The notes under the pieces: model-generated
Told to the model about the DNA's origin: nothing
The model's input: only the letters and a program-made list of their open reading frames with translations
The model's database searches: none
Shown here: positions 6,280 through 57,049 of the stretch, in pieces
Numbering within the stretch: the stretch's first letter is position 1
Layout of the letters: the number at the start of each line of letters is the position of its first letter
NCBI RefSeq assembly: GCF_044704955.1
Contig: NC_091999.1
Coordinates: 10,664,001-10,728,000 of the forward strand
Direction: 5' to 3'
Source: Pristiophorus japonicus
Taxonomy: Eukaryota
DNA length: 64,000 nucleotides
Program-made: the position numbers and the translations under genes

Positions 6280-6541
6280 TTGTTAGTTATGGGCGGCGAG
6301 GCTGTGATCCATCAACCGCAGCAGATAGTTGCACGAGGGAGAATCGATTGACATCCAATGCAATGCGAGCAACAGCGGCTCTGATGGCAACGCCACTGAC
6401 GGACGATTCAAACTCTTCATTGACACAACAAGGAGTTCCAACATTTTCGGTATGGACAGCACCGTGGTCTCAGACGATGGAGTGTATTACTGAGCATTGA
6501 GGCACCGTGAAACTATAGCTGGGGGCTCCAGTACATTATCT
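6280..6541 (+). pseudogene. TCR V pseudogene (same family as 1-223), internal deletion
   Basis: EAVIHQPQQIVA start, WYRQ region deleted, YYC changed to TAT TAC TGA. RSS CACCGTG 6503-6509 / 23 / ACATTATCT 6533-6541. Confidence 0.85.
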
Positions 6542-7294
6542 CCTGCAGGTTCCTATCAGACAATCTTAATAACCTTTCTCCGCTTCCCAGAATGTGTTGA
6601 CAGCTTTGTGGTGTACAGTTCCATTCATCCGAGAAGGAAAGGACTGACCAGATTTTCCTTCAAGATGTTGATTATTTTGTGCTGTACATTTCCACAGGCT
6701 CTATTCATATTGCAAAGGGATGGTTACTCAGACTGACCTGAATCCTGTTACTTTTATTTTGCTACTGATTTCTGATCATGTTGTAATTCATTAAATTCAC
6801 ATAATTGATGGCTTTTATCGAATTTACCACATCCTTGTGTTCAAATCCCTCAAGACCCGCTGGCTTTCTATATCCCCTTATCTATTGCTTGTCAGTATTT
6901 CTCACAGTAAGTGAGCAGATGTTTTAATGGAAGACACCTGGAATGATAAAAAAGTAAATTATTTATCTCCCTTCACTGCTACTCCCTCACCTGCTAAAGT
7001 GCCAACATTGAGTTTAATTACCATCCAGTTCCATGTTGTGAGGAGAACAACTTCACTCCGTTCCGCGATGCTCGATGTGATGTATTGCGTTGGAGAAGAA
7101 AGGACCTGGGAGCTGATTCGTTGAATTCGAAAGCAAAGGACACGTGAGCTCATTGGATATCACCTGCTGACTCTGCCAGAAATGAACCAATCAGCAAAGA
7201 CACCGGAAATGAATCAACATCTTCGTAACTCTTGACGAAAATAATTTCAGGTTCAACCCGTTCTGTTCAAATCTGCTATGTACTATCTGTAAAC

Positions 7295-7850
7295 ATGTTT
7301 GGTGTGACTTTTTACTCAGCCGTCACAGCTGCAGCTCTCTTAACTGGTAAAATTTAAAGCAACAGAATCTTCCTCTTCCAGGTGTCAGTGACAACCTTTT
7401 AACTGTGTTTTATCATTATTTGCAATGTATTTCGTCGCATGTTAGTTTAGTTACAATTAAATTATGATAATTAGTTAAAATTTTGTATTTATACATGTCT
7501 GCAGGGGGTAGTGGTGCAGACTCCGTCTCACAGCCGCCGGTTAGAGCGATGCAGTTTGAAGGAGATTCGGTGACAATTATTTATAGCTATTCTACCAATG
7601 CTGGTTCGAATTCCATACAACTGTACCGTCAGGACCGGGACAAAGGTCCCCAAATCCTAATCTGCAGTCCTTCCTATGGGGATGTTGTCAGAGCAGTGGG
7701 CACTGGGGCTCGATTTTCTGTATCTCTGGACAGATCGAAAAGTGAGGGGAACTTCACCATCGGCGGCCTGCGGCTGACTGATAGTGCGCTGTATTACTGC
7801 ACGCTGAAAGACACAGTGATAGGCACCAGAGGGTGCCTCGTGCAACAACC
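7295..7850 (+). CDS. TCR alpha/delta V ORF, non-canonical (no Cys23, no Trp41)
   Basis: Leader 7295-7346 MFGVTFYSAVTAAALLT splices in frame to exon 7505-7811 GGSGADSVSQPP..VTIIYSY..IQLYRQ..LTDSALYYCTLK. RSS CACAGTG 7812-7818 / 23 / GCAACAACC 7842-7850. Confidence 0.8.
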
Positions 7851-8279
7851 GTGCTGCAATCTGACATGGACAATGGAATAGTGGGCAAAGTGGGGAGATT
7901 GGGGGGATGTCAGAATTATCGCAGGAGAGTGTCGATGTAAACCAAACAAATAATTAGCTACCCATCTAACAATACAGAACTGCCATGAAGTTTATTATTT
8001 TAATCATAATAATCTTGCAGTTAATATCATAATAAATTGTCTGATTACACAATGCTTCCAATCTCTGTTCATGTCATTGACACATCAACTTTCAATCTTA
8101 GTGAAATGTATATAAAGCAAGATCTCAGTCAGTGTCAGAATCGCACTCAGATCTGCCACTCCAGTCGGCAGGAGATGAAATAAACAGAGGGGAATATTCC
8201 GTAACGATTTAAGAGACTACAGATGCGTCAAAAATCTTCAGAACAACGAGGTCTCTCCTGAAATGTGACCCCGTGAGAC

Positions 8280-8607
8280 TCAGTTTCCAACCTTAGCGGA
8301 TGGCCAGGGTGCTGATTGTACCAGAACGTATAATCTGCAGCACCACTGCTGGTTTTTAAGCTACAGATTAGTATGACATTACTTTCCTTTTCAACCATCA
8401 TTTCAGGAACGTGCTGTTGCACTTTGTATTGGTGGCTGCATACTGACATAAAATAATAGTAGTAGTAATCATCCTCATCATCATCACTTGACCAATAATA
8501 ACATCTGGGTTACAGCATTGAAGGGGAGACTGGAGTTTTAGCGGAAAATCTATAGTTACTGAGATGTGATTATAAATGAAGAGAAGAGTGCGAGACGGTT
8601 CCACATG
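8280..8607 (-). pseudogene. 3'-truncated V pseudogene (family B, as 41.2 kb)
   Basis: Leader ATGTGGAACCGT..; exon KVQQHVPEMMVEKESNVILICSLKTSS..FWYNQHPG then diverges; no RSS. Confidence 0.85.
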
Positions 8608-9112
8608 ATGATCATTGAGTCTGTAACTGCACAGTCCGGGAAATCCTCTGTCCGAGCAGATATATAGACAGGGCCGTACTGCACACCTGATCCAAACAAA
8701 GCCAAACAGGGAACAGTGGAAGCAATCTCTCCAATAGCACAGGCCTACAAAAGAGTGTCAGAAGGAGAGCAACAAATGGATTCTTGCGTGCAGCTGCCAC
8801 AGATAAAAAACTGAGTGAATTCAAGGCTTTGATTATCCACACAAACTGCGTGGCGCCACTCAGCTGCACTCGGAGTGCATGGGGCGGAAAGGGCGATGGT
8901 TGGCTCTGGAGGTCTGTGGTCTAACTGCTTCTGCTTACTGAGCAAGTGACAGGGAATAAAGAGAGTTGGGGGAAAGGAAGTACATTGTACAGCTTCAGCA
9001 ATAATGAGCAGCTTCAGTCTGTTCTAATTTGAAACACAATATCTGGCACATGTGTTTTATATATAATCAACAAACCCAAAATCCCCACAATGAGATTATT
9101 CTGAATAAATTA

Positions 9113-9205
9113 CGCCAACAGAAGGCGCCAATATCAAATATGGTCATTAGAGAGTCACGTGATGTAAACAACAATGGCAACAGCGATCCAATCTGAGTGA
9201 TGTCA
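9113..9205 (+). promoter_or_regulatory. V promoter: CTCF-like site, E-box, TCR decamer/CRE
   Basis: GCCAACAGAAGGCGCC at about 9114-9129; GTCACGTGA at about 9154; AGTGATGTCA 9196-9205 matches the TCR-V decamer AGTGAYRTCA, about 110 bp upstream of the ATG at 9314. Confidence 0.55.
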
Positions 9206-9313
9206 TAATGGGGTTGCCCGTGCAGTGCGCAGGTTGAACATTGGAACAGGCCCTGCCCGATTTACTTTTCACCTTCTCAATCTCTGCCTCGTTCAATTCA
9301 AAGTAAATGCGAC

Positions 9314-9862
9314 ATGTTGCTAATAATCCTGGTGAGTGTGTTGGACCGTAGGTATCGAATTATATTAAACAACATAGGTTAACAGATTGATGGAAAAAGC
9401 TTGTGCAGGGTCTCGGTGCAATTAGTAATCATAAATATTAACATGATGGTCAGCTGTGTAGATGGGAGAATAAACACACTGACTCAGATAGGCGCAAGTT
9501 TAGATCACTGCTGGTGAACTTCATGTTCTTTTACTGCCCAATCTTCAAAGACGGATTTTGTACAGATCCAGTACTTCAGACAATTCTCGTGTTAGCAGGG
9601 GCTTCGGTGAGGTTAGATTGTGAACGTATAACCCCGGATATTTACTACATGGAATTGTATTGGCAGATTCCGGAACAGCCTGGAAGCTGAATAATTAGCA
9701 AAGTAGCTGCTCTGAAGGGTGTTGAAGTCGCTGGTGAATGCTAACATCTCCAGAAAGTATGGTTAACTCAAGATGAGTGGTCTGAGTTGGGTGGACGGGG
9801 CGGCCCATTACTGTGCCGTGCGGCACTGCTTCTGATTAAAGCAAAGTCTTTGTACAAAAACC
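9314..9862 (+). pseudogene. TCR V pseudogene
   Basis: Leader ATGTTGCTAATAATC..; frameshifted exon ending CATTACTGTGCCGTGCGG. RSS CACTGCT 9824-9830 / 23 / ACAAAAACC 9854-9862. Confidence 0.8.
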
Positions 9863-9939
9863 TCAGCGAGTTTTAGCAGCTCCATTAATTCATCATTGTT
9901 GCGTTTACCTGTGGATTTAATTTGATCCCAAAGTCACGG

Positions 9940-10312
9940 AGACGAAGACTGTCAGGTTGCTCGATCATAGAGTTGTTCTCGTGTCCTTCTCTTTGTCCAA
10001 ATTAGCAGAAAAGCGATGTTGGAAATCTGGAGAATTTTCTCGATGCTTACCAGCGATATCGAAGTACCAATAGAGAGAGGAAAACGATCGGATCTCGAGA
10101 AATTGCAGTTCAGTATAGGTCTAATCTTCCAGAACCGTTAATTCAGGCAAATCAAGGGCCACGAGGTCTGCGCTACTCGTTCCTGAATCAAAATATAGAA
10201 TGTCTTAAAAGTCTGGGACTAAATATAATGGATGAAGCACATGCTGATCCTTTTATCAAAATTCATCGGGCAGGACGACCATTACCAACAGTAATTAACA
10301 TGGGGAACACAT
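9940..10312 (-). pseudogene. Degraded V pseudogene (family A, as 12 and 49 kb)
   Basis: Leader ATGTGTTCCCCATG..CTGCCC and exon CAGGAACGAGT..CCTGAATTAACGGTT..CTGAACTGC homologous to 12.3 and 49.5 kb; many lesions, no clear RSS. Confidence 0.7.
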
Positions 10313-10789
10313 GGCGTCCGGTTTAGTGTTCGACAGAATAAAGCAACATGGTGATGCTATGTTGATCCTTCTCGTTTGGTATTAAAGGGTACTCTGAGAA
10401 CAGGGGCAGGCATCACGTAATTGCAGACTGAGGGGCGCTTTCCAGGGACAGTGTTATAAATCACCCAGCACTCTGATAACCGCAGAGGTTATGAGCGATT
10501 AGCCCCGCCCCAACCCCGACCGCCATCTTGGGCCGGGCAGGTTTCTCGACGGTCTCTGCTAATCTTTGCGGCACAGTTTCACCGGACGACATGGGCTCTA
10601 TTCTATCTTCACCAACAACCCTTTTAAATAAAATTATATTTCCGATTCCCTAAGTTGCATTGAAAAAATAAGCAACTTTTCGATAGGAATATCTAACCGA
10701 TGGTGAGGGAGTATCCCGCGCAATTGTGCTGCTGGTAAATGGGATCTAATGAATTAATTGACTAACAGAATATTAACTCCGCCCCTACT

Positions 10790-11100: not shown

Positions 11101-12017
11101 TACTGTGGAAGAGAGAAAAAAGATGAAATATGTTTGGTCTACAATTACCTATCAGAAAATCTCCACATAAGCCCGATGCTGAGTAGCCAAATTGACGTTA
11201 TATACTCTCTAAAAGGGGGCTTGGATGCTTGGAGACATACGTTCTAATCCCCACCCACAATAATCATCTGTCATGTCTCAGGATGCTCTCACCGCACTTC
11301 CTTGTTTCCTCAGTCGTGCTGTGAGACCGATAGGTAAGGAGCTGCCTACCAGTGAATGGAAACACGCTCAACTGAGCCACAGTCAGTGTCCTAAGAAGGC
11401 AATGGTTAAAATGTTTGAGACAGGGAGTGGGAATGAGCCCCTTGTCTCTTTGTTGCAAACCGGAAGCTGTGGAGAGCCCCTTGTCTGTTTGTTGCCAACC
11501 GGAAGCTGCGGGATTGTTATTGATGACAGAAAACATTCCAGAATTAAGGAGACTTTCTGAAGGGCGGTGGAGATTGGAGGAACTCTGTGCTTGGGGCTTG
11601 TTTGCAAGAGCGCAGTTATGACCTTGTGATATCTGATGATTTTGTATAAACAGACTGCGACTCAGTAACATACTCTGATCAGATAAAGTCTGTGTACAGG
11701 CCACGATCACTGGGTCCTGGAAACTAACAGAGGGGATGTTGAAACAGATGCACAATGCTGGAGACAGGTACCGAAAGAGCATCAAAGGATAAAGTGTAAA
11801 AACAGAAGTGGATTATAAGCTGATTTTTAGTATGAATACGAGTTTAAATCACTGAATAAAATTTTACAAGTGGACCTCACCTCTTCCTGTTCAGCGTTGT
11901 GCTTTGTCACTCTTTTAAGAAGGTCCCTGTGACTCTCACTGTGGAAGTTAAATTTTCGCTTCTGTTTATCCGTGTGAGGGCGCCCTCTGTTGAGCACTGA
12001 TTGGAATTCTTAGTATG

Positions 12018-12490
12018 AGTTTTTGTACGAGGTCCTCTATATCTCTGCAGCACTGTGGGCTCCATGGCACAGAAATAAACGGCGGCATCAGAGACAAGCG
12101 TCCCAGCGATATTTAAAGGAACTGTTTTATTCGTTTTGTTTATGTCAGCAGAGAACCTGTCTGGTAAACCTGGAGACTTGTCTCCGTCTCCTGAGCTATA
12201 TTTCTTCAGTAAATATTTCGGAGCTTCTCCGGGATATTGGATGTACCAGAACAGAGTTGAACCAGCTCTCGAGTAACTGCAGCTCAGGATTGTGTTCTGT
12301 CCTTCCTGAACCGTTAATTCAGGCGGATCCTGGAGCACCTTATCTTCGCCATTGATTCCTGTAACAAATGAGAGAATGTATCAAAACCTCTGCGCGTAAA
12401 TATAACCCATGGAACTAAAACTTGCCATTTAAACGTAGACTCACCAGGCAGCACAAACATTATTATTAGGAAGAAACATGAGGAACACAT
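12018..12490 (-). CDS. Apparently functional TCR alpha/delta V gene (family A body, family B 3' end)
   Basis: Leader 12490-12445 MCSSCFFLIIMFVLP, GTGAGT donor, in frame with exon 12358-12058 GINGEDKVLQDPPELTVQEGQNTILSC..LFWYIQYPGEAPKYLL..DAAVYFCAME. RSS CACAGTG (12057-12051) / 24 / ACAAAAACT (12026-12018). Confidence 0.9.
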
Positions 12491-12729
12491 GGTGAATTTT
12501 ATAAAGTTCGTCAGAAAATAGCAGAATGTTCTCAATATTCGAGTCGTCTATTTAGGATTAAACGTCGATCAGGCACAGACTTCACTGATTGGGTGACTGA
12601 GGGGCGTTTTCCATGGAGAGGATTGGCTATTCATTCAGAACCGACAATTGTGTGAACCAATCAGTTGCAGACCAATTACTTTCGCTGCCGATTTCTTTTT
12701 CTGTCTCTGTCTTGGTCGGTGTCTCCATC

Positions 12730-22939: not shown

Positions 22940-23383
22940 ATGAATGGAATGATAATTTTCACTTATTGATTTTAGGTGAGTGTCGGTGTGCTGAAAAGCA
23001 TTCGCTGTTACATTTATTTATTGTGTCTAATTTTCCACCTCCTTTGTATCTGCAGTTTTCGGTGGCGAAGCTGTGATTCACCGACCACAGCAGCTGTTTG
23101 CACAAGAGGGGGGATCGATTGAAATCCCGTGCAATGCAAGGACCAGCGGTTCTGATGATATATTATGGGAAAGCCAACTGCAGAACCGTAACCTGAATTG
23201 TATCATATCTACTATCCTGGCCAACTCCACTGATGTATGATTCAAATTCTTCATTGACGCAATAAGAAGTTAAGAAGTTATAATATTCTCGTTATGGACA
23301 GCAATGCGGTCTCATAGGCTGGAGTATATTAATGTGCAGTGAGGCACCGTGAGACAAAGGCTGGGCGCTCCAGTACAATATCT
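22940..23383 (+). pseudogene. TCR V pseudogene (paralogue of 6.3 kb and 1-223)
   Basis: Leader with GTGAGT donor at about 22976; exon with several stops. RSS CACCGTG 23345-23351 / 23 / ACAATATCT 23375-23383. Confidence 0.85.
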
Positions 23384-24166
23384 CCTGCAATTTCCTATCA
23401 GACAATCTTAGCGCGCTTCCATAGCTCTCCTTAATGTGTAGTCTCCTGTGTTGTGTACAGTTCCATTTATCTGGTAAGGAAAGGGTTAATCAGAACTTCT
23501 TGCAAGATGTTGACTCCTTCTTTCTGTACAGTTTGACAAGCTCTATTCATTCTGTAAGGGAAGGATTCATCACACTGACCTGAAGTCTATTAAATTTCGA
23601 CTGCTACTGATTTATGTGCATATTGTAATTAATTTCTCTCATATTATAGGTGACTGTTGTCGGATTTACCACATCCTTGTTTTCAAATCCCTCAGGACTG
23701 CAAGGCATTATATATCCCGCTGTCTATTGGCTATGGGTAGTTCTAATATTCAGTGAGCAATTTTTAATGGGTGTCGCCTACACTGATACCAGAAGAGCAT
23801 TAATTATTTCGCTTCACTGCCTATATCTCACCAGTTACAGGGCCGACATTGGGTTTAATTCCCGTCCAGTAGTCTGTTGTGAGAACAATTTCATTCCGTT
23901 TAGCGCTGCTCGCAGTCATGTACTTAAATGTAGAACAGGGGAACTGTGAGCCAATTGGATCAATTGGAGAACAAAGAAGCTGTGAACTGATTCGAGGAAT
24001 TGCAGAAAAAAGACCCGTACTCTGATTCGATATCACCTGCTGACACGGTCAGAATGAACCAATCGGCAAAGACACCTGATGTTAATCAACATCTTCCCAA
24101 CACTTGACTAAAACATTTTCAGGTTCAAACCGTTCTGTTCCAATGCGCAATCAACTCTCAGTAAAT

Positions 24167-24708
24167 ATGTTGGGTGTAACATGTTTATTCAATCGTCACA
24201 GCTGCAGCTCTCTTAATTGGTAAAGTTAACAAGTTACAAAATCTTCTTCCAGGTATGATTAAAATAATTATAACGTTGTTTACTCTCTATTTGCAATATA
24301 TTCCATCACGTAATGATTTAGTTACAACAAAGTGATGAAAAATGGTTGAAGTTCTGTATTACTAACTTTCTGCCGCTGTTAGTGGCACAGACACGATCTC
24401 GCAGTGGCTGGTGACAGTGACGCACTTTGAAGGAGATGCGGTGACAATTAATTACAGCTTTTCTTCCCATTCCTTACAGCTGTACAGCCAGGGCGGTGGA
24501 AAAGGAACCACAATCCTAATCTACCTCCCATCGGTCGGGGATGTTTTCAGAGCAGAAGGCGTGGCTGCTCGATTTTCACATCTCTCGATACTTCGCAACG
24601 TGAGGGGAATTTCACCATCAGCGACTTGGCTATTTGATAGCGTGGTGTATTACTGCGGATGGAAACTGACACAGGGGAAGGAACCAAAGGGAGCCTCATA
24701 TAAAACCG
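24167..24708 (+). pseudogene. V pseudogene, paralogue of the 7.3 kb V
   Basis: FEGDAVTINYSFS..LQLYSQ..DSVVYYCG with FR3 frameshifts and a mutated acceptor. RSS CACAGGG 24670-24676 / 23 / ATAAAACCG. Confidence 0.85.
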
Positions 24709-25139
24709 CTGCCGCAATGTGACAAGGTCAAGGGGACAGTGGGAAAAGTGGCGAGAAACCGGGACTGTCAGTACTTATCGCAGGAGAGTGTCCGTTCAAA
24801 TCAAACAAATGAGTAGCTATCCAGCTTTCAATACTAAACTGGAATAATGTTTATTATTAATAATAATCTTGCTATTACCATCATAATAAGTTGTTTGATA
24901 GACAATGCTTCCAATCCATGTTCATATCATGGGCACCTCAACTTTCAATCTTCGTGAAACAGATATAAAACCAGTTCTCATTCAGTGTCACAATCGCAAG
25001 TAGACCTCACGCTCCAATCGGCAGGAAAATAACTTAATGGTAAGGGGCAATTCAGGAATTAATTTAGAAATCATTTGAGGGATTCAAAAACATCAGAACA
25101 ACGCGGCCTCCCCTGAAATGTGACCCACAACCCAAATCC

Positions 25140-25442
25140 TGGCGGCTGCACGAGGTGCTGACGGTACCAGCACACATAACGTATCGCAGCACTTGCTTTC
25201 AAGGTTCGTGTTACATCACATTGCCTCTTCAACCGTCATTTCCAGAACTGGCGGTTCCACTGTGTCTTGGTGGTCTACTTCTGACATAAAATAATAGTAA
25301 TAGTGATTATCATCACTGTCTTCACTTGGTCAATATAACATCTAGGTTGCAGCAGTCTGGGGAGAATGGGTTTTTACTGGGAAGGAAATGATTACTGAGA
25401 AGTGATATAATGATGAGGAGTGGCGCGGGATGGTTCCGCATG
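25140..25442 (-). pseudogene. Truncated family-B V pseudogene (paralogue of 8.3 kb)
   Basis: Leader ATGCGGAACCAT..CTTCTCA|GTAAT; exon with GTGGAAC..GAAATGACGGTTGAAGAG..TGGTACCGTCAGCAC; same truncation flank as 8.25 kb. Confidence 0.8.
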
Positions 25443-26149
25443 ATCTTCCCTGAGTCTGATACACTGCAGTCTGGAAAATCCTCTTTCGGGACGGAAATAC
25501 AGAACCCCACTCCACTGTACTTCTGATCCAAACAATGGCGAAGAGGGAGCAGTGGTTAAATCACTCCAATAACATAAGGCGGATTGGAGCAAGAGCAGCA
25601 AACGGAAGCTGTGGGTGGGGCAGCCGGAGACACATAATTGAGTGAATTCAACTCTCTGTGTAACCGCAGAGAATACGCAGTGCCAATCAACTGAAATCGA
25701 GGCTGATGTAATGGAAAGGGTGTTGGCGTCGTGGAGAAGTCTGTGGCCAAACTGGTCCTGCTCACTGAGCAATTGACTGGAAATAAATAGAGTGGGAGGG
25801 ACAAGAAATGTTTGCACAGCTTCAGATATATTCCTGGTTGAACCAGCTCAAATCTTGAGTTTGGAGACGCAACATCTGGCATAGGTCTTTTATATATGAT
25901 CCATAAAACATAAATCCCCTCAACGGCGTTATTTTAAATCTAATTGAACAAAATCCGCCAGCAGACGGTGCCAAACTCAAGTGTGGGAATTGGAAAGTCA
26001 CGTGATGCAAACATCAAAGCCAACAATGACCGCAGGCAAAGGAAGTCACAAATGAGTCGCCCCCTGCAGCGTGTGGGTGGAACGGTGAGCTGGACAGGCC
26101 GCGGGTTACCTCTGTCCCTCTCAAACTCTGCCTGATTCAATTCCAAGTT

Positions 26150-26690
26150 ACTGCGAGTGATTCAATCAGACTTATTTCTCATAATACAGGCGGCTGTACA
26201 GTAAGTACTGAATTATTTGAAAAACCCATGTTAGCAGACTGATGCAAAGAATTTGGGCAGGCAATCTGAACTCTCCATACAATGAATAGCTGGGTTTATG
26301 GGAGGTTACATACACACAGATAGACACAAGTTGTAATCGATACTGTGTAAGCTCATGTTCTACTGTTCTCCTGTCTTCACAGGCGATTATGTGCGAATCC
26401 AGTAGCTAAGTCTCCGGTGACAATAGAGATGTTAGCATGGTGTTCGCTGCAGTAAGATTGCGAATATACAACACCGGATATTAACATCGTGCAATGTGTC
26501 GTCAGAAACCGGTAGAGGCTCAAAGCTCAATAATTAGAAAATATCCACACTAATGGGAGGCGAAATATCAGGACAATATTAGGTGGCTGCAAGCAAGTGT
26601 AGAAAGAACATTTACCTAAGTGTGCAAGACGGGCGGTCAATCACTGTGCAGTGAAGTACAGCGTCAAAAGGCCCCGGACATAAATTTCAG
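26150..26690 (+). pseudogene. Degraded V pseudogene (paralogue of 9.3 kb)
   Basis: Intron and exon homologous to 9.3-9.85 kb; ends CACTGTGCAGTGAAG plus a degenerate RSS (TACAGCG..ACATAAATT). Confidence 0.7.
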
Positions 26691-26707
26691 CATGTATTTA
26701 TAGTTGC

Positions 26708-27215
26708 ACAAGAACATAACAACAGAAGACATAGGAGCATTAGTAGGCCCTAAGGCCGCTAGAATCACTCTGTCATTCAATAAGATCATGGCTGATCTGA
26801 CCATGGACTCAGCTCCACTTCCCCGCCCGCTCCCAATAACCCTTTTATCCCCTTATCGTTGAAGAAACTGTCTACATCTGCCTCAAATTTATTCAATGTC
26901 CCGGGTTCCACAGCTCTCTGAGGCAGCCAATTCCACAGATTTACAACCCTCTGAGAGAAGAAATGTCTCTGTTTTAAATGGGCGTCCACTTATTCTAAGA
27001 TCATGCCCTCTAGTTGTACCCTCCCTCATCAGTGGAAACATCCTCTCTGTATTCCCCTTGTCAAGCCCCCACATAATCTTATGTTTCGATAAGATCACCT
27101 CTCATTCATCTGAATTCCAATGAGTAGAGGCCCAACCTAATCCACATTTCCACATAAGTCAATCCCGTCAGCCGCCGGAATTAACCTAGTGAACATTCTC
27201 TGAACTGCCTCCAAA
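26708..27215 (-). mobile_element. CR1 3' fragment
   Basis: FFSQRVVNLWN, RGHDLRI and CR1 3' UTR. Confidence 0.9.
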
Positions 27216-27259
27216 CATGAGACCTTTCATGCTTTTCTGTCTGGGGTTAGTTTGATCAG

Positions 27260-27680
27260 AAAGTGACGAAGACCAAATTCTGTCAGTTTGCGAGATGAAA
27301 TACGTGCTTGCATTCGTGTCCTGATCCTTGTCCAAATCTGCAGAAAAGTGATCTGGGAAATATAGAGAATTATCAACCTGCCCGGAGTGATAACTCCTCT
27401 GGAAGTATCTCAGAGCTTACCAGGGGTGCTGATATAGCAGCAGAGGAAGGACAAACTATCGGATCTGGAGAACCTACTTATGAGTATTATGGGCTGTTCA
27501 TCTAACCTTAATTCAGATGGATACTAGCATACTGCGCCTGCACCTCTGGTACCTGCAACAAAACACAAAATGTGTGAAAGTTCATGGATTGTACATAACC
27601 CATGAACACATACTGAGCATTTATACATATACTCACCGGGCAGCATGACAATTATCAGCAAGGCACATGGGTAGTACATG
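27260..27680 (-). pseudogene. Degraded family-A V pseudogene (paralogue of 10 kb)
   Basis: Leader ..TCATGCTGCCCG|GTGAGT; acceptor TTGCAG at about 27552; remnant homologous to 9.94-10.3 kb. Confidence 0.65.
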
Positions 27681-27881
27681 GGGAGCCTTTCTTAGAGTGC
27701 GACAGAAAAAAACAAATTTTTAATAAAATGTTGAATTTTCTCGTCTGATATTAAAGAATAAACTGAGATCCGGAGCAGGTTTCCCTTATTGGGAGACTGA
27801 AGGGGCGTTCACAGGGACAGTGTTGTAAATCATCCAGCGCTATGAAAGCGGCAGAGGAGAGAAGTCCTGAGGCCCACGGCA

Positions 27882-28576
27882 GGTTTTTGTACTCTATCTG
27901 CTGATCTTTCCAGCACTGTGTCTTCACCGCACAGAAAAGGTGGTGGCGTCTATTGCTCAAGCGTCACCAACAATTAGAGCACTGCGCTTCTCTGTTGAAC
28001 TGAACCGAGCAGCGATCCTGCTCTGATCGCTGGTACCAGTTGCCTTGTGCTGCATGATTCTCCTCGGGTATTGTCTGTAACATTGCAGGATCGGTCCTGC
28101 GACTGTGGTGATGCAGGTCAATGATATAGTATCCCCTCGTTTAAAACTACTTGTTGGAAAACTGCGATATGTCTTCACTGCCCATGGCACCTAAGACGGG
28201 TATGTAGGTATTAATATGAGATAAAATAATATCATATGACATAATATATCATATGAGTAATAGATATAATATTATAGAATACACAATAAATTATTATATC
28301 ATATAATTAATATAATGGAAACAATATAGTATAATTTTATAACGTAATAAAGTAGAATATAACATAATATAACCTCATGCAATATAACACAATACAACTT
28401 AATATAATACAATGTAATTAAAATACAAATAAAATAACATAAAAAATAATATATAAACAATAAAAAATACATTTAAGATGTAAAATATTTCCAACAGACG
28501 GTTTGTGACCACACTCACAGGAAGGGGAAAGTAAGAAATTCAGGGAGATAATCACTAAAGTAAAGTCCAGCCTCAT
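27882..28576 (-). pseudogene. V pseudogene with a perfect consensus 23-RSS
   Basis: Leader 28576-28519 MRLDFTLVIISLNFLLSPS|GTGAGT; AT-rich intron; exon from 28190 hits an early stop, W41 is Cys. RSS CACAGTG (27920-27914) / 23 / ACAAAAACC (27890-27882). Confidence 0.88.
28210..28480. repeat. AT-rich low-complexity repeat (leader intron)
   Basis: Repeated AATAT/AATAA units. Confidence 0.8.
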
Positions 28577-30540: not shown

Positions 30541-31769
30541 TTCATTCCTCTCAATCATCGAGATCAGGATATTTATTCTCATTATCTTGTGTCTCGCTTT
30601 GGAAAACAAAGATTCAGAATTATATTACTGTCTTTTAGTGTCAGCTGACAAAGATATACAGGATGACAGTAATGGTGAATGAGTTAGCCACTTTAAAGGA
30701 CCGGATTTAGTCAGTAACCGTGATTTCACTGGGGTACATCAAATATAGTGGCGTCATATTATTAAATAATCATTTAGGAAGCTATCAGGGATGGCCAATA
30801 AATTCCGGCCTTGTAAGCTTCGAAGGCATCCAGCGAATGAATTAAAAATAACTTTGTATAACATTATATGGCGTTTTCAGTTTTATTATATAATATTACT
30901 TCAAATGAAATAAATTAAAATGGAAGTTACGACAATATCTAGATCCGCGGGGGTTTAATTTCTCCCTGCAGTAAACATCCTCTTCTCATAAAAATAAATA
31001 GGAAAGCAATCCAAATAATTCTGGGAGAGAATACTTCGTATGATAAATTCTACAAATACACATTTATTCAAAACCACCACCAGGTGGAGCGCCTGTCAAT
31101 CAGGAGTTTCACGTTGATACAGAACTTAAAGCACAATCAAAAAATTGCCGGTTTTCTTTGCCTGAGACAACGAGACCAGAGACCATATGAACTTACGGTA
31201 ACGAGATAAATATTCATTTAAAGGAGTAAAATTTAGGGGTTCAAATTCAGAAAGCTTGGAACAAGGTGTAAAATTCTATGATTTGAAGATCGCGATGACT
31301 ATTTCAGATTGAAATGCGACACAAATCAAATCTTTCTGAACAATTTAATCTGTTATTATACATAGCTGTCCGAGGCATTCCAGGTTCAAGAGTTCGTTGT
31401 TTTGAGAGACAGTCAATCCGCACCTGGGACTGGGAATGACGTTAGATGACAACATCCCATAATACGCCAATTGATGAGAATGTCGCCCATAAGTGGCACA
31501 CTGTATGAGGCGAATGTAAAGCTACCCCTCACATCCCTGTCATCGTCATTAAAATTCTGGGATTCGGCAGCACAGTCCAGTGTGGAAATCAGACCCGAAT
31601 TGATCCGCTTTTGTCTATCTTCATTGTCATCAACAGGAACCTCCGCAAGGACCAATTTCCAGCTGGAGCAATGGTGCTGTTGTGTGAGTTTATTTATCCG
31701 ATCAGACGCCTTGACTTTAGCAATTTCTTATTATCTTGTGTTTGGTCAGTGACTTTGCTTTTTTCACAG

Positions 31770-32089
31770 CCTTCGGTGCGAGGATCGGAGCTCACACCCT
31801 CAGCATGTGGCGTCACGGGAAGGACAACGGGCTGAACTGGACTGCCGGCTCTCCTTTGGTGCTACGGATACCGCAGCTTGGTACAAACAAGTACTGTCAG
31901 GGCCGGCCAAATCTATCGGCTCCATACACCAGGCGAATGAGACCACAGGGTGCTACAAACTGTCCTTTGACCGAGCGAAGAAATCCAACTCCATCTCGAT
32001 AGATGGCACCACGGCCAGAGACGCCGGAGTGTATCACTGTGTGGTGCAGACAGGGTGAGGGGAAGAGCGGCTCCAGCTGCACAATATCT
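31770..32089 (+). pseudogene. V exon with open frame but defective heptamer and no intact leader
   Basis: HVASREGQRAELDCRL..AAWYKQVLSGP..DAGVYHCVVQ. CAGGGTG 32051-32057 / 23 / ACAATATCT 32081-32089. Confidence 0.8.
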
Positions 32090-32279: not shown

Positions 32280-33191
32280 NNNNNNNNNNNNNNNNNNNNN
32301 NNNNNNNNNNNNNNNNNNNNNNNNNNNNNNNNNNNNNNNNNNNNNNNNNNNNNNNNNNNNNNNNNNNNNNNNNNNNNNNNNNNNNNNNNNNNNNNNNNNN
32401 NNNNNNNNNNNNNNNNNNNNNNNNNNNNNNNNNNNNNNNNNNNNNNNNNNNNNNNNNNNNNNNNNNNNNNNNNNNNNNNNNNNNNNNNNNNNNNNNNNNN
32501 NNNNNNNNNNNNNNNNNNNNNNNNNNNNNNNNNNNNNNNNNNNNNNNNNNNNNNNNNNNNNNNNNNNNNNNNNNNNNNNNNNNNNNNNNNNNNNNNNNNN
32601 NNNNNNNNNNNNNNNNNNNNNNNNNNNNNNNNNNNNNNNNNNNNNNNNNNNNNNNNNNNNNNNNNNNNNNNNNNNNNNNNNNNNNNNNNNNNNNNNNNNN
32701 NNNNNNNNNNNNNNNNNNNNNNNNNNNNNNNNNNNNNNNNNNNNNNNNNNNNNNNNNNNNNNNNNNNNNNNNNNNNNNNNNNNNNNNNNNNNNNNNNNNN
32801 NNNNNNNNNNNNNNNNNNNNNNNNNNNNNNNNNNNNNNNNNNNNNNNNNNNNNNNNNNNNNNNNNNNNNNNNNNNNNNNNNNNNNNNNNNNNNNNNNNNN
32901 NNNNNNNNNNNNNNNNNNNNNNNNNNNNNNNNNNNNNNNNNNNNNNNNNNNNNNNNNNNNNNNNNNNNNNNNNNNNNNNNNNNNNNNNNNNNNNNNNNNN
33001 NNNNNNNNNNNNNNNNNNNNNNNNNNNNNNNNNNNNNNNNNNNNNNNNNNNNNNNNNNNNNNNNNNNNNNNNNNNNNNNNNNNNNNNNNNNNNNNNNNNN
33101 NNNNNNNNNNNNNNNNNNNNNNNNNNNNNNNNNNNNNNNNNNNNNNNNNNNNNNNNNNNNNNNNNNNNNNNNNNNNNNNNNNNNNNNNNNN
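32280..33191. other. Assembly gap
   Basis: Run of N. Confidence 1.
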
Positions 33192-39910: not shown

Positions 39911-40489
39911 TGTTTTCCTTTCTTATTAATTCTCGTGAGGTCGCTGAGGATCCCAGAATTTATTGGCCATTCCCCAGGTTCCCCTTGATAAGCTGATGGC
40001 CGTCATTTTTCTTGGACTGCTGTATTTCTGCTCTTTGCACCCGTTTGATACCATTGACTGGCTTACTGGGCCACTTCACCGAACAGTCAAGAGGCAACCA
40101 TGTTGTGTATGGCACCGGAGTCCCAGAAGGGACAGAGCCGGATAAGGTAGCAGTTTTCCTTCCCAATTAAGGAGATTAGTCATGCAGTTGCGGTTTTACC
40201 ACAATCCGAGTATCACGACCATATTTACCAATAACTACTTCTTATTTATTTGTAAAATATCTGAATTCAAATTTATAAACTAGCAGAGTCGAAGTTGAAC
40301 AATCGCACTCTAGATTATTAGCTCACACCTCGGGATTATTTGTTGAGTTACAGAACCAACATACAACTACACGCCTTAAAACGTCATTTTCTCTGCATCA
40401 ATCAGTCGATATGACAGTGTCAAGAGTATTATAAACAGAGAGTTGGTTTATTGCAGTCATAACTCAGACCGGTACTAATATAATGTAAA

Positions 40490-40850
40490 ACGAGATATTT
40501 AAGGAGAGACAGATGGAGAGGCATATATAGATTATCAGATTGAAATAAACAGAGGGGAAGAGAGTGAGAGATAATGAGAGAGTGAAAGAATGCGAGATTG
40601 AGACAGAGAGAGAGACAGAGCGAAGGACAGAGAGAGAGAGAGCGAGAGAGATACAGAAAAAGGGACATTGTGAGATACAGAGAGACAGACAGAGAGGGAA
40701 ATCGGCAGACACAGACACGGAGCCAATGAGATACATACAGTGAGAATCAGATGGAGACGAGAGACACAGAGATAGTGAAAGAGATAGACAGCGAAATATA
40801 GTGACAGGGAAAGGATCACAGCGAGAGAAACAGAGTGATCAGCTGAGGCA
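40490..40850 (+). repeat. AG-rich low-complexity tract (inverted copy at 56150-56490)
   Basis: GAGA/GACA-rich sequence. Confidence 0.85.
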
Positions 40851-41190
40851 AAGGTTTTACATCGTTAAACTAAAAAAAGGAAGAAGAAATATCAAATAAT
40901 TATGGATAACGACTGGAGATAAGGCATGAGATGGGACAGGCATGCATGGAAACGGCATTGAAAGAAAATTTGTAACAGATGCCTTTGAACAGTGTCTTTC
41001 TATTTTAAATGTTCTTTAAAATCACCAGCTCATATAATTACACCGGTGAACGTCACCGGTTCTTGTTAGCATTTTGCTTTATTTGAGTTTTAAGAAAGCC
41101 CCTGTGAATCTCACTGTGGGGGCTGATATATCGCTTCTGTTTAGCAGTTTGAGAGCGCCCTCTGGTGAGCACTGTGGAACTCCCAGTGTG

Positions 41191-41677
41191 GGTTTTTGTA
41201 CGGGATCCGCTATATCTCTGCACCAGTGTGGGGCTCATGGCACAGAAATACACGGCGGTGTCTGAGATCAAGGCCTTGCTGATCGTTAGCTCAGTAATCT
41301 TAGTCGTTTTATGAAACGCAGAAGAGAATCGGTCACTGAAGTTGGGGTTTCGCTTTACTGCCGTTCCAATAAGGTAAAACACGTACTGTGGGGGCTGCCC
41401 CGGGTGCTGACTGTACCAGAACACAGAAGGGCTAGGTTCGCTGGTTTTCAAGGTGCAGTTTAGTGTTACATTACTTGCCTCTTCAACCATCATTTCGAAA
41501 ACCGACTGTTGCACTGTGCCTTGTTGGCTCCATTCTAAAATAAAATAAGAGCAATTGTAATCATCGCATTATCACTTTACCAATAATAACATCAGGGGCA
41601 GAATTATTATTTTTACAACGTAAATACTTACTGAGAAGTGTTATAATGATGAGGAGCAGTGCGTGACGGTTCCACAT
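41191..41677 (-). CDS. Apparently functional TCR alpha/delta V gene (family B)
   Basis: Leader 41677-41632 MWNRHALLLIIITLL|GTAAGT, in frame with exon 41534-41231 KWSQQGTVQQSVFEM..VTLNC..VFWYSQHPGQPPQYV..DTAVYFCAMSP. RSS CACACTG (41230-41224) / 24 / ACAAAAACC (41199-41191). Confidence 0.9.
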
Positions 41678-42290
41678 GATGCTCCCTGAGTCTCTAACTC
41701 TGCAGTCCTGGAAAGTCTCTGTCGGAACAGCAACACAGATCCCTGCTGCACTGCACTGCTGGTCCAACCAATGTGAAGCGGGAACAGCGACAGCGATCTC
41801 TACAATTACACAGGGCAGGCAAGGCGGGGCAGAGCGAGAGCAGCAAACGGAAGCAGTGGGCGTCGCTGTCACCATCAGTGTTTTCATACGTGGGATTCAT
41901 CTGTGAGAACAGAATTCAGAACAATGTTTCCTTGGTAAATTATACAACTCTTCCTCTCGAGAAGAGCTGCGTTAATTTCACATTTATTACAAACTCGGGG
42001 CAAGAAGATTGACAACACGAATTGCAAAATGATTACATTATTCGACAGTTACCGAAATTTTCATCAGTGAAGTAGGTTAAAACTAGGTGCTGAAATAAGC
42101 GATGGGAAAGAGAACAAAACTGTAAGGAAAAATATAACATTAATGAGCTGAAATGTGAAATCAAAAGGAATTTCATCCAATTTATATTGAATAATAGAAT
42201 TGCGGATTGACCACTGCCCTTTGACTGAACTGGCCGTTTTCGGAATCGATTTGACTATTACCCAATCTATTCAGACTTTGATCAGTGAGG

Positions 42291-42610: not shown

Positions 42611-42769
42611 AAATTTAAGAATTACATGGAATGTACAGCACAGAAACAGCTCATAGAGTCAGTGGATAATTGGGAAATAGAGAAGAGAAAGATTTAAAGA
42701 AAGTGAGTAGGAGCAGATTTCGAAACATAAGGTAGAGGAATAGAAAGTGAAAGTGCGAAAGAAAGAATG

Positions 42770-48431: not shown

Positions 48432-49182
48432 GTTTGATGGTGAATTTCAACAGAAAGGGTTGAACCTGAAAAAGTTTCTCGTCAAGATTCGGGAGATGCT
48501 GATTAATATCCCGCCTCTCTGCTGAATGGATCGTTCTTGACAGAGACAGCGGGTGATATACAATCAACTCACGTGTCCTGAGTTCGACAATTCATCCAGT
48601 CAGTTGACAGTTCTGTTTTTCGCCATTTCATCCAATCAGTTCCTTTCTTTTCCAACTCGTCCAATCACCTTACAGCCCTTTGTTCTCCAAGTCAACCAAT
48701 CTTTACACTGCGCATTGTTCTCCAATTCATCCAATTAGCTCACAGCTCGTTTGTTCTGCAATTCACGCCATCAGAGCGGGCAGCAAATAAAGGACTGAAA
48801 TGATTTTCGCAACAGAGAACGATCTGGGGATTAAACCCAACGTTGGACCTTTAACAGGGGATTAAACACAATGCTGGTCCTTTAACAGGGGATTAAACCC
48901 AATATTAACCCTTAACAGGGTCAGTATATGCGATGGAGGCAGTGAAGGGCTAGAGTTAACGTTGTTCTGTTATCAGTGCCAGCGACTCCCTTTAAAAGAG
49001 CTGCTCTGTGACTATTAGAAGCAGCTGATATAAACGTGATATTATATAGAATTTGTCAGAGACTACAGCTGAGAAATTGGTAATTAGGCTAAATCAGTAT
49101 TTTACTTTGGTTGATGTTCCATTACCATTTCCTAATCCAGGTCACAGATCTGATTCAGTGAGAGGAGATGAGAGTTTTTGCT

Positions 49183-49660
49183 GGTTTTTGTACGGGCTGA
49201 CTCCACCCCTGTAACAGTGTGAGGCGGAAGCGCACAGTAATAGACGGCAGAGTCAGAGACAAGAGCCCCGGAGACATTTAAAGGAACAGATTTCTTGTCT
49301 TGGTCCAAATCAGCAGAGATCCGGTCTGGGAGGTCTGGAGACTGATCCCCTTTCCTCTTGCCATATCTCCTCAGTAAATATCTCGGAGCTGCTCCGGGAT
49401 ACTGGATATACCAGAAGAGGTAGGGAAAGCTTTCGGAAGTCGAGTAACTGCAGTTCAGTATTATGGTCTGTCCCTCCTGAACTGTTAATTCTGACGGATC
49501 CTGGGACACTGAATCTTTGCCACTCGTTCCTGTTACAAAATACAGAATTGGTCAAAAGTCTGGGAGTGAATTTAAAACATGAAACACACACTTACCATTT
49601 AAACATAGACTCACCGGGCAGCCCGACTATTATCATCAATAAGGCGTATAGGGAATACAT
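49183..49660 (-). CDS. Apparently functional TCR alpha/delta V gene (family A)
   Basis: Leader 49660-49615 MYSLYALLMIIVGLP|GTGAGT, in frame with exon 49529-49222 GTSGKDSVSQDPSELTVQEGQTIILNC..YLFWYIQYPGAAPRYLL..DSAVYYCALP. RSS CACACTG (49221-49215) / 23 / ACAAAAACC (49191-49183). Confidence 0.92.
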
Positions 49661-50284
49661 AGTGTCTGGATTAGAGTCTGACAGAAAAAAACAGAATGAT
49701 CAAAATATGTGCGATATTAAATGTTGAACGCGAATCAGGGGCAGGCTTCACTTATTTGGAAACTGAGGGGCGTTTCCCAGAGACAGGATTAGCTGGTCTC
49801 TCAGAACTTTCTTTAGCTTTGCACCAATGTGTGTTAGTTGTGCCCAATTGCTGCAGCATCTCTCCAAACACTGTCCTTGACTGATTGTGTGTGTCTTTGT
49901 CTCTCTTGGTATATGTCTATTTAACTCGGTACCTCTACCCGTGTCATGGGATCTCTCTCTCTCCCTCTCTTTTGCAATCTCTCAGTCTACTTCTCTCTGT
50001 CTATCCCTCTCATTCTTTCTCTACCTCTCTCTCTCATTGAGGTGAAATAAGGCGTAGAAATTCCTGCAGTGAATGCATCCCGTTAATAGGTGCAGTCTTA
50101 CAATGATAGGTTACACACACACCAAACTTAACAAAAATACACACAATGTTTGATATCTTTGGGGGTTATTGATGTATATTTAGTTGTACTTTGCTTGAGA
50201 TGCAAAGCACTTTAATAAGTACAGAGAGCGCACCCTTGTGTGCAATACAAGCCTCAAATAGTGCATTGGAAACAAGCACATCAC

Positions 50285-52935: not shown

Positions 52936-53061
52936 TGATGTTGATTTTGTTTTCTCTTCCTTTTATGAATCTCCCTGTGAATCTGAGGGTGGAGAATTCT
53001 TGTTTCTGATTATCGGTCTGAGAGCGCCCTGTGGTGCGCAGCAACTCGAACTCTCAGTTTG

Positions 53062-53601
53062 TTTTCTTGTAGGGCTCCACGAAAATTCTGTAGCAGTGTG
53101 GGGCTCATGGCACAGAAATGCACGGCGGTGTCAGAGATCAGGGCTTTGACGATCATTAGCTCGGTATTCTTGGCAATTTTATTAAATGTAGAAGAGAATC
53201 GATCAGTGAAGGCAGGGTTCAGGTCTACATTCACTCCGATAAAATGAAGCACATACTGTGGAGGCTTCCCGGGGTGCTGAATGTACCAGAACACATAAGT
53301 TGCAGTATCGCTGGTTTTCAAAGTGCAAGTTAGTGCAATTACTTTCCTCATCAACCATCATTTTAGGGACCGGCTGTTCCACTTTGTCTTGTTGGCTCCA
53401 TTCTAACAGAAAAGAATAGAATGAATCATCATGATCATCATCATCTTCATCTCAATCAACATAATCATAATCGTCAATATCATTTTACCAATAATAATAC
53501 CTGAGTTACAGCAGTTAGAGGGAGAAATGATTTTTAATAGGTAGGAAATAATTACTTCGAAGTAATAAAACAATGAGCAGCGGAACAAGATGGTTCTGCA
53601 T
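53062..53601 (-). pseudogene. Family-B V pseudogene
   Basis: 2-nt deletion in FR1 before LTCTLKTS; VFWYIQHPGKPPQYV..DTAVHFCAMSP. CACACTG (53100-53094) / 23 / ACAAGAAAA. Confidence 0.88.
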
Positions 53602-53861
53602 GATTTTCCCTGAGTGTCTAACTCTGCAGTCCGTGATATACTCTGTTCGAGCAGAATTACAGATCCCCGCGCCACAGCACTGTTGATCCCACCATGGCAA
53701 CATGGAGCAGCGGCAGCAATCTCTCCATTAACACAGAGCTGGCAAGGCGGGTCTGAGCGAGAGCGGCAAACGGAAGCTGTGGGCGGGGCTGCCGTTGTCG
53801 GTGTTACTGCAAAATTTTTCTCTACAATTTCCGGTTGATAACGGGATAAACATGTAACCAC

Positions 53862-54682: not shown

Positions 54683-55295
54683 CCTCTCTGAGCAAAGCCT
54701 GGTTAGATTGGGTAACAGTCAAATCGGTTCCGAAAACGGCCTGTTCAGTCAAAGGGCGGTGGTCAATCCGCAATTGTATTATTCAATATAAATTAGGATG
54801 AAATTCCCTATGATTTCGCATTTCAGCTGATTAATGTTATATATTTCCAAACAGTTTTGTTCTCTTTCCCATCGGTTATTTCAGCACCTGGTTTTATCCC
54901 ACTTAACTTTTGAAGATTTCGGTAACTGTTCAATAATGTATAATTTTGCAATTGCTGTCGCCAATCTGTCGACACGAATTTGTAATAAATGTGAAATTAA
55001 CGCAGCTCTTATCCAGAGGAAGCGTTGTATAATTTGCGAAGGGGACATTATTCTTAATTCTGTTCTCACAAATGGATCCTCCGTTTGACAACACTGCCCG
55101 TGACAGCCACGCCCACAGTTTCCGTTTGCTGCTGTTGCTCTGCCCCGCCTTGCCTGCCCTGTGTAATTAGAGAGAGCGATGCCGCTGTTCTCTGCTTTAC
55201 GTTGGTTAGAGCAGCAGTGCAGTGGAGCAGTTGTCTCTATTGCTGCTCCGACAGAGGATTTCCCGGACTGCAGAGGTGCAGACTCAGGGAGCATC

Positions 55296-55794
55296 ATGTG
55301 GAACCGTCTCGCACCGCTCCTCGTCATTATATTAGTTCTCAGTAAGCAGTTCCTTCGCAAAAATAATAATTCTGCCACTGATGTTATTTTTGTTTAAGTG
55401 ATAATGAACATGATAATGCGATGATGACAATTTCTATTATTTTATTTTCGAATGGAGCCAACAAGACACAGTGGAGCAGTCGGTTATCGAAATGATGGTT
55501 GAAGAGGAAAGTAATGTCACCTTAAATTGCACCTTGAAAACCAACAATCGAAGTCCTTCTGTGTTCTGGTACAGTCAGCACACCGGGCAGCCCTCACAGT
55601 CCGTGTCTTACCTTATTGGAGCGACAGTAAACCGAAACATCGACTTCACTGACCGATTCCATTCTGCGTTTCATAAAATGAGTAAGATTACCGAGCTAAC
55701 GATCAGCAAGGCCTTGATCTCAGACAACGCCTTTTATTTCTGTGCCATGAGCCACACACTTGTGCAGAGATGTTGCGGATCCCGTAAAAAACCC
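55296..55794 (+). pseudogene. Family-B V, open frame but dead splice acceptor and damaged RSS (inverted copy of 41.2 kb)
   Basis: Leader 55296-55341 intact; acceptor AG to CG at 55449-55450; exon ..TLNC..VFWYSQHTGQ..DNAFYFCAMSH. CACACTT 55755-55761 / 24 / AAAAAACCC. Confidence 0.85.
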
Positions 55795-57049
55795 ACACTG
55801 GGAGTTCCAGTCAGTGCTGACAATAGGGCGCTCTCACGCTGATAAACAGAAGTGATAATTCAGCCTCCACAGTGAGATTCAGAGGGACATTATTAAAAGT
55901 CAAATAAAACACAATTCTTACTAAGAACCGGTGAAGTTCACCGGTGGAATTATATTAGCTGATGACTTTAAAGCACATTTAAAATAGAAATGCACTGCGC
56001 AAAGGCATCTGTGGCACATTTTCTTTCAATCCCCTTTCCTTGCATGCCTGTCTCATGTCACCTCTTGTCTCCAGCCTTTATCCATAATTATTTGATATCT
56101 CTACTTCCTTTTTTTAGTTTAACGATGAAAAACCTTTGCTTCAGCTCATCTCTCTGTTTCAATTGCTGCTGTTATTTCTCTCTCACTCTATTTCACTGTC
56201 AAACTTTTTCACTGTTTCTGTGTCTCTCGTCTCCATCTAATTCTCGCTGTATGCATCTCATTGGCTCCGTGTCTGTGTCTACCGACCTCCCTCTCTGTCT
56301 GTCTCTGTGTCTCTCATCATGTCCCTTTTTCTGCATCTCTCTCGCTCCCTCTCATTGTTCTTCACTCTGTCTCTCTCTCTGTCTCAATCTCTCATTTTTT
56401 CACTCTCTGATTATCTCTCACTCTATTCCCCTCTGTTTATTTCAATCTGTTTCACTATCTATTTCTCTCCATCTGTCTCTCCCTAAATATCTCGTTTACA
56501 TTACATTAGTACCTTTCTGAGTTATGACTGCACTAAACCAAATCTCTGGTTATATTACTCTTGCCACTGTCATATCGTTTGTTTGAGGCAGATAAAATGA
56601 CGTTTTAAGGCTTGTAGTAGTGTTCTGGTTCTGCTAGTCAACAAATAATCTAGAGTGCACTAGTTCAACTTCTCCTATGGTAATTTAGAAATTTGAATTC
56701 AGATGTTTAACAAATAAACAAAAGCGGTTATCAGTAAAAGTGACCGTGAAACTCGGATTGTGATAAAACCCCAACTACGTTACTAACTACCTTAATTGGC
56801 AAGGAAAATGGCTGCCTTTTCTGGCTCTGTCCCTTATGGGACTCCGGTGCCATAGACAACGTGGTTGTCTCTTGAATGTTCGATGATCTGGCCCAGTAAC
56901 CCACTCAATTGTATCAAACGTGTGCAAAGAGCAGAAATGCAGTAGTCCAAGAAAAAGAACCACGATCAACTTAACAAGGGAAATCTGGGGAATGGGCAAT
57001 AAATCTTGTGCTCCTTAGCGACCGCACGAGAATTAATAAGAAAGGGAAA

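Follow-up and report, generated by a model that had tools for sequence, protein, structure and literature searches.

In the mouse IgH locus, the RSS-associated CTCF sites described in PMC6746451 follow the nonamer at a distance of 17-19 bp and are predictable from the V-gene tree, and PMC4914699 reports that CTCF and RAD21 at such RSS-side sites mark the actively recombining IgH genes of clans 2 and 3. In the mouse TCR alpha/delta locus, the bound CTCF sites tabulated in PMC5859386 (Table 2) lie mostly upstream of the V promoters. Within V families, germline conversion and unequal exchange between genes have long been on record, as in the T15 VH family (PMC2187977).

The window analysed here (the whole stretch of 64,000 nt) contains, at 12.1 kb, a V gene (the 12 kb gene) that is a mosaic of two V families, termed A and B. 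It resembles the mouse and human VH genes of clans 2 and 3, as described in PMC6746451 and PMC4914699, in the short and fixed distance from the nonamer to a predicted CTCF site (20-22 bp in this window, against 17-19 bp in the mouse and 19 or 48 bp in humans). As with the RSS-side sites reported for IgH, the predicted sites have the same strand sense, accompany some V families only and would be lost on recombination. Unlike IgH, these are TCR V genes of a cartilaginous fish, and the predicted site crosses family lines, whereas the IgH site follows the tree of the V bodies. Germline recombination between V paralogs that gives rise to mosaics is a trait in common with T15 VH (PMC2187977) and human IGK (PMC11327106); however, the T15 exchanges described took place within one family (>88% alike), whereas the shark bodies are <50% alike and break at the FR3 end, and the DNA transferred consists almost entirely of non-coding sequence for recombination control and was subsequently amplified as a subfamily. 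The gene organization (leader, short intron, V exon, 23-class RSS and many near-copies) is that given for the TCR alpha/delta V genes of the nurse shark in the accessible passages of PMC5931798, in which the alpha V5 primer peptides resemble the 49 kb type of family A described below, a likeness treated as a lead only. In those passages, RSS and flanks are not covered and mosaic V families do not appear, and text searches of the supplementary material returned nothing. A search by title and start of abstract, with subscription journals and much of the shark TCR work mostly outside its range, yielded no paper on a between-family swap of RSS and CTCF site or on mosaic shark TCR V families. Germline exchange between V genes is known, the between-family swap of a tail is apparently new, and no new mechanism is needed for it.

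The window holds a cluster of antigen-receptor V genes with repeats between them. Nine V-like exons were recognized by motif and additional broken ones by tblastn; their signals are of the 23 class. V genes occur on the plus strand (1.1, 7.8, 24.6, 32.0, 45.9 and 55.7 kb) and on the minus strand (12.1, 27.9, 41.2, 47.6, 49.2 and 53.1 kb), so that some would require inversional joining. The 12 kb gene has the parts of a TCR V segment, i.e., a leader exon, a GT-AG intron and an open V-set exon with the Cys, Trp and Cys residues. Its protein falls in V-set clusters at 0.97 (Atlas), its top single-domain PDB structure matches are TCR alpha V domains, and the nearest proteins are V-set proteins of Leucoraja, Chiloscyllium, Mustelus, Heterodontus, Scyliorhinus and Callorhinchus; a family-B homolog (P0173) carries the name T cell receptor alpha chain-like. 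By structure matches and named homologs, the gene is closer to TCR alpha/delta V than to Ig V. Single-sequence protein searches with a threshold of E 0.001 gave no match (1 and 43 candidates), and no J or C segments were seen within the 64-kb window, which we read as a putative elasmobranch TCR alpha/delta V array.

Several other structures were observed in the window. Numerous repeat copies of 0.3-1.7 kb, probably LINE fragments, lie between the V genes. An inverted duplicate (39350-42769 vs 57611-54202; 84.8% identity over 3.4 kb) carries the B genes at 41.2 and 55.7 kb. In an older duplicated block (6388-10450 vs 23222-27820; about 70% alike), each copy holds a B fragment truncated at an identical FR2 point, and an A pseudogene truncated at an identical FR3 point and followed by common foreign sequence. 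A near-perfect 23-RSS of a broken V gene (27882-27920, minus strand) ends just tens of bases short of the promoter region of the 27 kb A pseudogene, on its upstream side, and a V-like exon at 31762-32060, for which the scan found no RSS, stands shortly before an N gap (32280-33191).

The 12 kb gene is encoded on the minus strand, and its parts are given in the direction of transcription. The promoter and 5' untranslated region (12491..12641) are of family-A type, aligning with the 49 kb gene and scoring at chance level against B genes. They are followed by a 46-nt leader exon (12445..12490) with its ATG at 12490, and by an 86-nt GT..AG intron (12359..12444), also of family-A type; the spliced frame is open to the coding end at 12058. 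The V exon from FR1 to most of FR3 (12091..12358) is a family-A body, sharing 75.2% identity with the 49 kb gene and 45-51% with B genes; in the alignment its CDR1 is 2 residues shorter than that of the 49 kb gene. The breakpoint interval (12084..12090) falls within the D-x-A-V-Y motif, with about 30 nt remaining to the coding end, and the rest of the V exon (12058..12083; ..VYFCAME) is B-type. The RSS (12018..12057), located by the RSS scan, comprises a consensus heptamer (12057-12051), a 24-bp spacer and a nonamer with one mismatch (12026-12018), and belongs to the 23 class (23+1 spacer). It is followed by a CTCF-like motif (predicted site; 11980..11995), a B-type 3' flank (11856..11979) defined by self-BLAST and non-coding alignment, and a distal flank (11560..11855) common to the paralogs of the 12 kb subfamily, with 4-16 differing contigs per listed site.

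Four genes of the window are central to the comparison: (i) a family-B V gene on the minus strand (41032..41680; self-BLAST, motif and RSS scans), with an open V exon and the same cassette of V exon end, RSS and flank; (ii) a family-B pseudogene on the minus strand (52944..53791; RSS scan, alignment), with a frameshift in FR1 and a cassette with a 23-bp spacer; (iii) a family-B gene on the plus strand (55104..55956; self-BLAST), in the inverted duplicate of the 41 kb block, whose heptamer and nonamer are damaged; and (iv) a family-A V gene on the minus strand (49182..49807) with a 23-bp RSS and what is likely the ancestral A-type end. At 49222-49228, the 49 kb gene has one extra base before the heptamer in comparison with several paralog contigs, so that "CALP" is peculiar to this copy and the underlying end is probably CAL-x-P. 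The A pseudogenes at 10 kb and 27 kb end in FR3 before the disputed end and are uninformative on direction.

Self-BLAST placed the change of homology within the V exon: 12067-12641 matches 49232-49807 (72.7% over 583), while 11856-12098 matches 41032-41272 (77.9% over 244) and 55956-55713 (75.6%), and 11912-12094 matches 52960-53137 at 72.7%. A triplet scan of the 12 kb gene, with the 49 kb and 41 kb genes as the two parents, had 239 informative sites. Up to 12090, 97 A-type and 24 B-type sites were counted, and 17 and 101, respectively, from 12084 on (chi 103.6; reached in 0/2000 permutations, maximum 17.9). With the 53 kb or the 55.7 kb gene as B parent, chi was 56.1 and 98.2, and the break again ended at 12084. 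Only 5 coding informative sites lie past the break (5/5 B-type against the 41 kb gene), and the scan is partly trivial because the 49 kb flank is unrelated and the weight past the break is in the RSS and flank; non-coding DNA was therefore also compared alone. The upstream region and the intron scored 74 and 61 against the 49 kb gene (shuffle maxima 27 and 20), and 22 and 13 against the 41 kb gene, which is chance. The flank after the nonamer scored 117, 61 and 116 against the three B genes (shuffle maxima 25-28), 22 against the 49 kb gene (chance) and at chance level against five other V flanks; among nine V flanks, it aligns solely with those of the three B genes. The 5' exon of the 12 kb gene is 75.2% identical to the 49 kb gene vs 47.7% to the 41 kb gene, and the 3' part 45.8% vs 78.6%.

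The preliminary description had matched the promoter, leader and FR1-FR3 of the 12 kb gene to the 49.2 kb gene, whose own 3' end it considered unrelated, and both statements are borne out by these values. It had also assigned the 3' end, with about 140 bp of flank, to the 41.2 kb gene; the end is indeed B-type from 12084, but it matches the whole B family and not that gene in particular, and the B-like flank is longer, reaching about 11856, some 160 bp past the nonamer. The spacer that it regarded as common to the two genes is so, with its length corrected to 24 bp.

The partition trees are discordant, in agreement with the capture first proposed. The 5' partition pairs the 12 kb and 49 kb genes (support 94/98) and the 3' partition pairs the 12 kb gene with family B (96/98). 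In an AU test on six rows, the pairing of the 12 kb and 49 kb genes was rejected in the 3' part (p 0.031), and the alternative pairing with B in the 5' part fell short of formal rejection (p 0.061). Recombination within the FR3 D-x-A-V-Y codons, already placed in conserved FR3 by the preliminary description, is the only fitting reading, since the non-coding homology changes sides there. The likeness of the flank to B wanes beyond 11855 (p 0.025 and 0.075), and the stretch separating the 12 kb gene from the 10 kb gene, compared in order to tell crossover from conversion, revealed no homology to DNA downstream of B or A genes. That no return to an A-type flank is seen fits one crossover, and decay would hide a second break.

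The spacer is 24 bp long in the 12 kb, 41 kb and 55.7 kb genes, and 23 bp long in the 53 kb and 49 kb genes. The predicted CTCF-like motif lies 22 bp past the nonamer in the 12 kb gene and 20 bp in the 41 kb gene, is also present behind the 53 kb gene, and was not found by the scan behind the 49 kb gene. Against the 13-letter scan consensus, the 12 kb copy has two mismatches and the 41 kb copy one; the motif alone is not rare, with 33 matches of up to 2 mismatches in the whole window. At 11990, most contigs carry a better-matching base (13 contigs, depth 355/393 in run X3), A-type and B-type contigs being inseparable at this position. A second consensus heptamer (11937-11943, minus strand), for which the RSS scan found no nonamer at 12 or 23 bp, is present in the cassette flank and conserved in the copies at 41 kb and 55.7 kb.

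Contigs of DNA runs were matched to the 12 kb gene at 80% likeness (347 pieces in X1 and 282 in X3, two runs of one sample, which may be that of the window itself; 72% of X3 was read). Along the whole stretch of the 12 kb gene, including the distal flank in which the likeness to B has waned, each listed site is covered by several to about 20 differing contigs, the summed depth of which does not equal copy number. The junction is bridged by 6 of the 16 DNA pieces listed (X1 and X3), with 19-47 differences and at least 31 letters on either side. Among the pieces listed, those that bridge represent at least three distinct paralogs besides the window copy, and none is identical to the window across the junction. 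At the loose ends of contigs, B-type sequence departs at 12084 and the A body with the other end at 12088. In the corresponding test of the 49 kb gene (320 pieces in X1, 285 in X4), the 49 kb-type end also proved multi-copy (each listed flank site in X1 has 5-12 differing contigs), and at least four of the X1 pieces listed bridge its flank and body. Family A has two established ends. A 225-nt contig of X5, a run from another study, skips exactly the 86-nt intron and differs at 8/223 letters (96% identical), which shows that a close relative or allele of the 12 kb gene was spliced; this contig ends before the V end. V-J joints were not detected in the contigs of the runs examined, X7 giving no match and X6 one piece.

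Thus, of the claim that a single V gene had captured the cassette, the capture stands, although the gene is not alone: an old event would have founded a subfamily, the paralogs of which bridge the junction. That the gene stayed functional is consistent with the intact frame and RSS and with the spliced relative, V-J joining itself being putative. The end of the 49.2 kb gene is not an isolated derived condition, as it is multi-copy and its flank occurs in P0039 and in Chiloscyllium P0052.

Counterparts of these genes were found among predicted proteins of other species. Family-A bodies ending in CAMEP occur in Leucoraja erinacea (P0002), Mustelus asterias (P0154), P0086 and P0028; family-B bodies ending in CAM in Heterodontus (P0102, P0163), Chiloscyllium (P0170), Scyliorhinus (P0173) and P0167; and A-like bodies ending in CAL in P0039, in P0052 and P0006 of Chiloscyllium, and in P0098 (CALEP) and P0136 of Callorhinchus. 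Some predicted proteins read through the RSS (P0163, P0086, P0028 and P0052) and keep the flank as peptide, which permits flank typing without DNA. Of 12 tails, that of P0098 was too short, and the other 11 were compared with nine window flanks (99 comparisons, 200 shuffles, floor 0.005), the cross-species flank evidence consisting only of such read-through peptide of predicted proteins. Among the B proteins, the tail of P0163 matches each of the four cassette flanks, for as many as 40 residues (0/200 shuffles); that of P0167 also matches all four (p 0.005-0.01), and that of P0170 fits the cassette more weakly (p 0.015-0.045). Among the A-CAM proteins, P0086 and P0028 have tails that match the 12 kb flank (0/200 shuffles), and the tail of P0002, of 9 residues only, fits the 55.7 kb and 53 kb flanks (0/200 shuffles). 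The tails of P0039 and P0052 fit the 49 kb flank (0/200), P0052 that flank alone. P0154 and P0006 gave no match to the expected flanks in this test, and six off-target pairs reached p 0.015-0.045, none of them the floor of 0.005. No DNA of other species was recovered by a pattern scan of metagenome and viral contigs or by a scan with P0086 (407 stretches, none confirmed). Judged from the nine-residue tail and CAMEP end of P0002, the mosaic type appears to extend at least to a skate. Sharks and skates separated roughly 270-300 million years ago.

The reading that we favour, with a probability of about 0.6, is that this TCR alpha/delta-type V gene, of family A as far as late FR3 and of family B thereafter, arose by an old germline unequal crossover within the conserved D-x-A-V-Y-x-C codons, before or near the shark-skate split. 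The crossover point would have been provided by the short common stretch at the FR3 end, the best-conserved DNA between families that are less than 50% alike elsewhere. A family-B gene was the likely donor, and the product would later have been duplicated into a subfamily. Frame and Ig fold would have been kept because just about nine codons were exchanged, and, as the captured DNA is nearly all removed at V-J joining, recombination control would have been altered and antigen binding would not. The predicted CTCF-like site 22 bp behind the RSS may, if the analogy to the VH genes of mouse and human holds, stall cohesin loop extrusion and raise RAG access to this RSS. Concerning age, the 12 kb cassette is at a distance of 0.23-0.34 from B genes, comparable to the depth of the splits within family B (0.29-0.31, measured to the 53 kb gene) and close to the upstream distance between the 12 kb and 49 kb genes (0.38), which argues for an old event.

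Repeated transfer from B to A, or later re-conversion, with the 12 kb subfamily acquiring the 24-bp version of the cassette separately, is a considerably less probable course. A first, wider protein tree was mostly without resolution. In the best tree of the later analysis, the five A-CAM genes form no single clade (3 changes; a clade in 2% of 200 bootstrap trees), although one such clade is compatible with the AU test (p 0.31). The 12 kb body shares 63% identity with the 49 kb gene and 60-62% with P0086 or P0154, and the distance to the 41 kb cassette is 0.225 for the 12 kb gene and 0.288 for the 53 kb B gene. The nesting of the 12 kb cassette with respect to family B, however, is found in only 86% of bootstraps (B alone, 73/82), and a clock fails to place the cassette inside B. 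Spacers read from protein frames are 24 bp in P0163 and P0167, 23 bp in P0170, P0086, P0028 and P0002, and 22 bp in P0154. A 24-bp spacer common to the 12 kb gene and B genes (41 kb, 55.7 kb, P0163 and P0167) and lacking in the other A-CAM records hints at later re-conversion, but the difference between 24 and 23 bp amounts to a single base next to a run of C, and the B genes are themselves variable (23 bp in the 53 kb gene and P0170). Moreover, all five A-CAM genes end in MEP, whereas the B genes end in MSP, MSH, MQP, MDP, MKP or MSL.

The reverse direction, in which this A lineage owned the cassette from the start, its capture gave rise to family B, and the 49 kb lineage has another end, is somewhat less likely still. 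It would be in keeping with the extension of A-CAMEP genes at least to a skate, with the near-trichotomy of the 12 kb, 53 kb and 41/55.7 kb genes in the cassette tree, and with the matches listed, in which no skate or chimaera B-type protein occurs (the searches were seeded mostly with A). The CALEP end of Callorhinchus P0098, together with a weak fit of the P0136 tail to the cassette (p 0.015-0.035), indicates that parts of the CAM-type end may predate the proposed event. However, the 12 kb and 49 kb genes have a common promoter and intron and unlike flanks, so that the reverse course needs two events, a second replacement included, and B as donor needs one. P0052 is 51-52% identical to both A genes, which are 63% identical to each other, and this more distant gene bears the 49 kb flank, which makes the 49 kb end look ancestral for A. 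As the position of P0052 in the protein tree is open, this rooting rests on identity and parsimony. Finally, a B gene without CAM was never seen: the end is present in 8/8 B genes (5 proteins from other records and 3 full-length window genes). The direction from B to A is moderately supported.

A common end without recombination, ancestral to A and B or convergent under selection on the RSS and CTCF site, is very improbable: RSS and CTCF motifs are constrained, and CAM ends do arise in unrelated V lineages (15/151 proteins), but about 160 bp of flank are 78.6% alike, well past both motifs, between genes whose bodies are 45-51% alike and whose introns and promoters cannot be aligned, and convergence was rejected on this ground. 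Least credible of all are an assembly mis-join, which the lack of a window-identical junction contig among those listed might suggest but which was rejected because paralog contigs in X1 and X3 bridge the same junction in genomic DNA and the cassette, 68-79% like the window B genes, is too distant for a join of near-copies, and a RAG-made germline hybrid joint that swapped the signals, rejected, although germline RAG joining is known in sharks, because the break lies about 30 nt inside the exon and not at the heptamer edge, and both signals are of the 23 class, with no 12/23 pairing.

Trees of V families use the coding body, and the subfamily arising, in the favoured reading, from a single old crossover shows that a control tail can pass from one family to another. 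The types represented by the 12 kb and 49 kb genes, which combine a common ancestry of promoter, leader and body with a different RSS and predicted CTCF tail, form a natural comparison, and the usage of both types in thymocyte repertoires would test whether an RSS-side CTCF site boosts recombination at a TCR locus in the oldest lineage of jawed vertebrates. Antigen binding would be changed little by the capture of such a tail. It is doubtful, though conceivable, that in sharks and rays the RSS and predicted CTCF site constitute a portable module swapped repeatedly between unrelated TCR V families via the FR3 end. If this were true, V usage could evolve apart from V specificity, unlike in mammalian IgH, in which the site follows the V clans.
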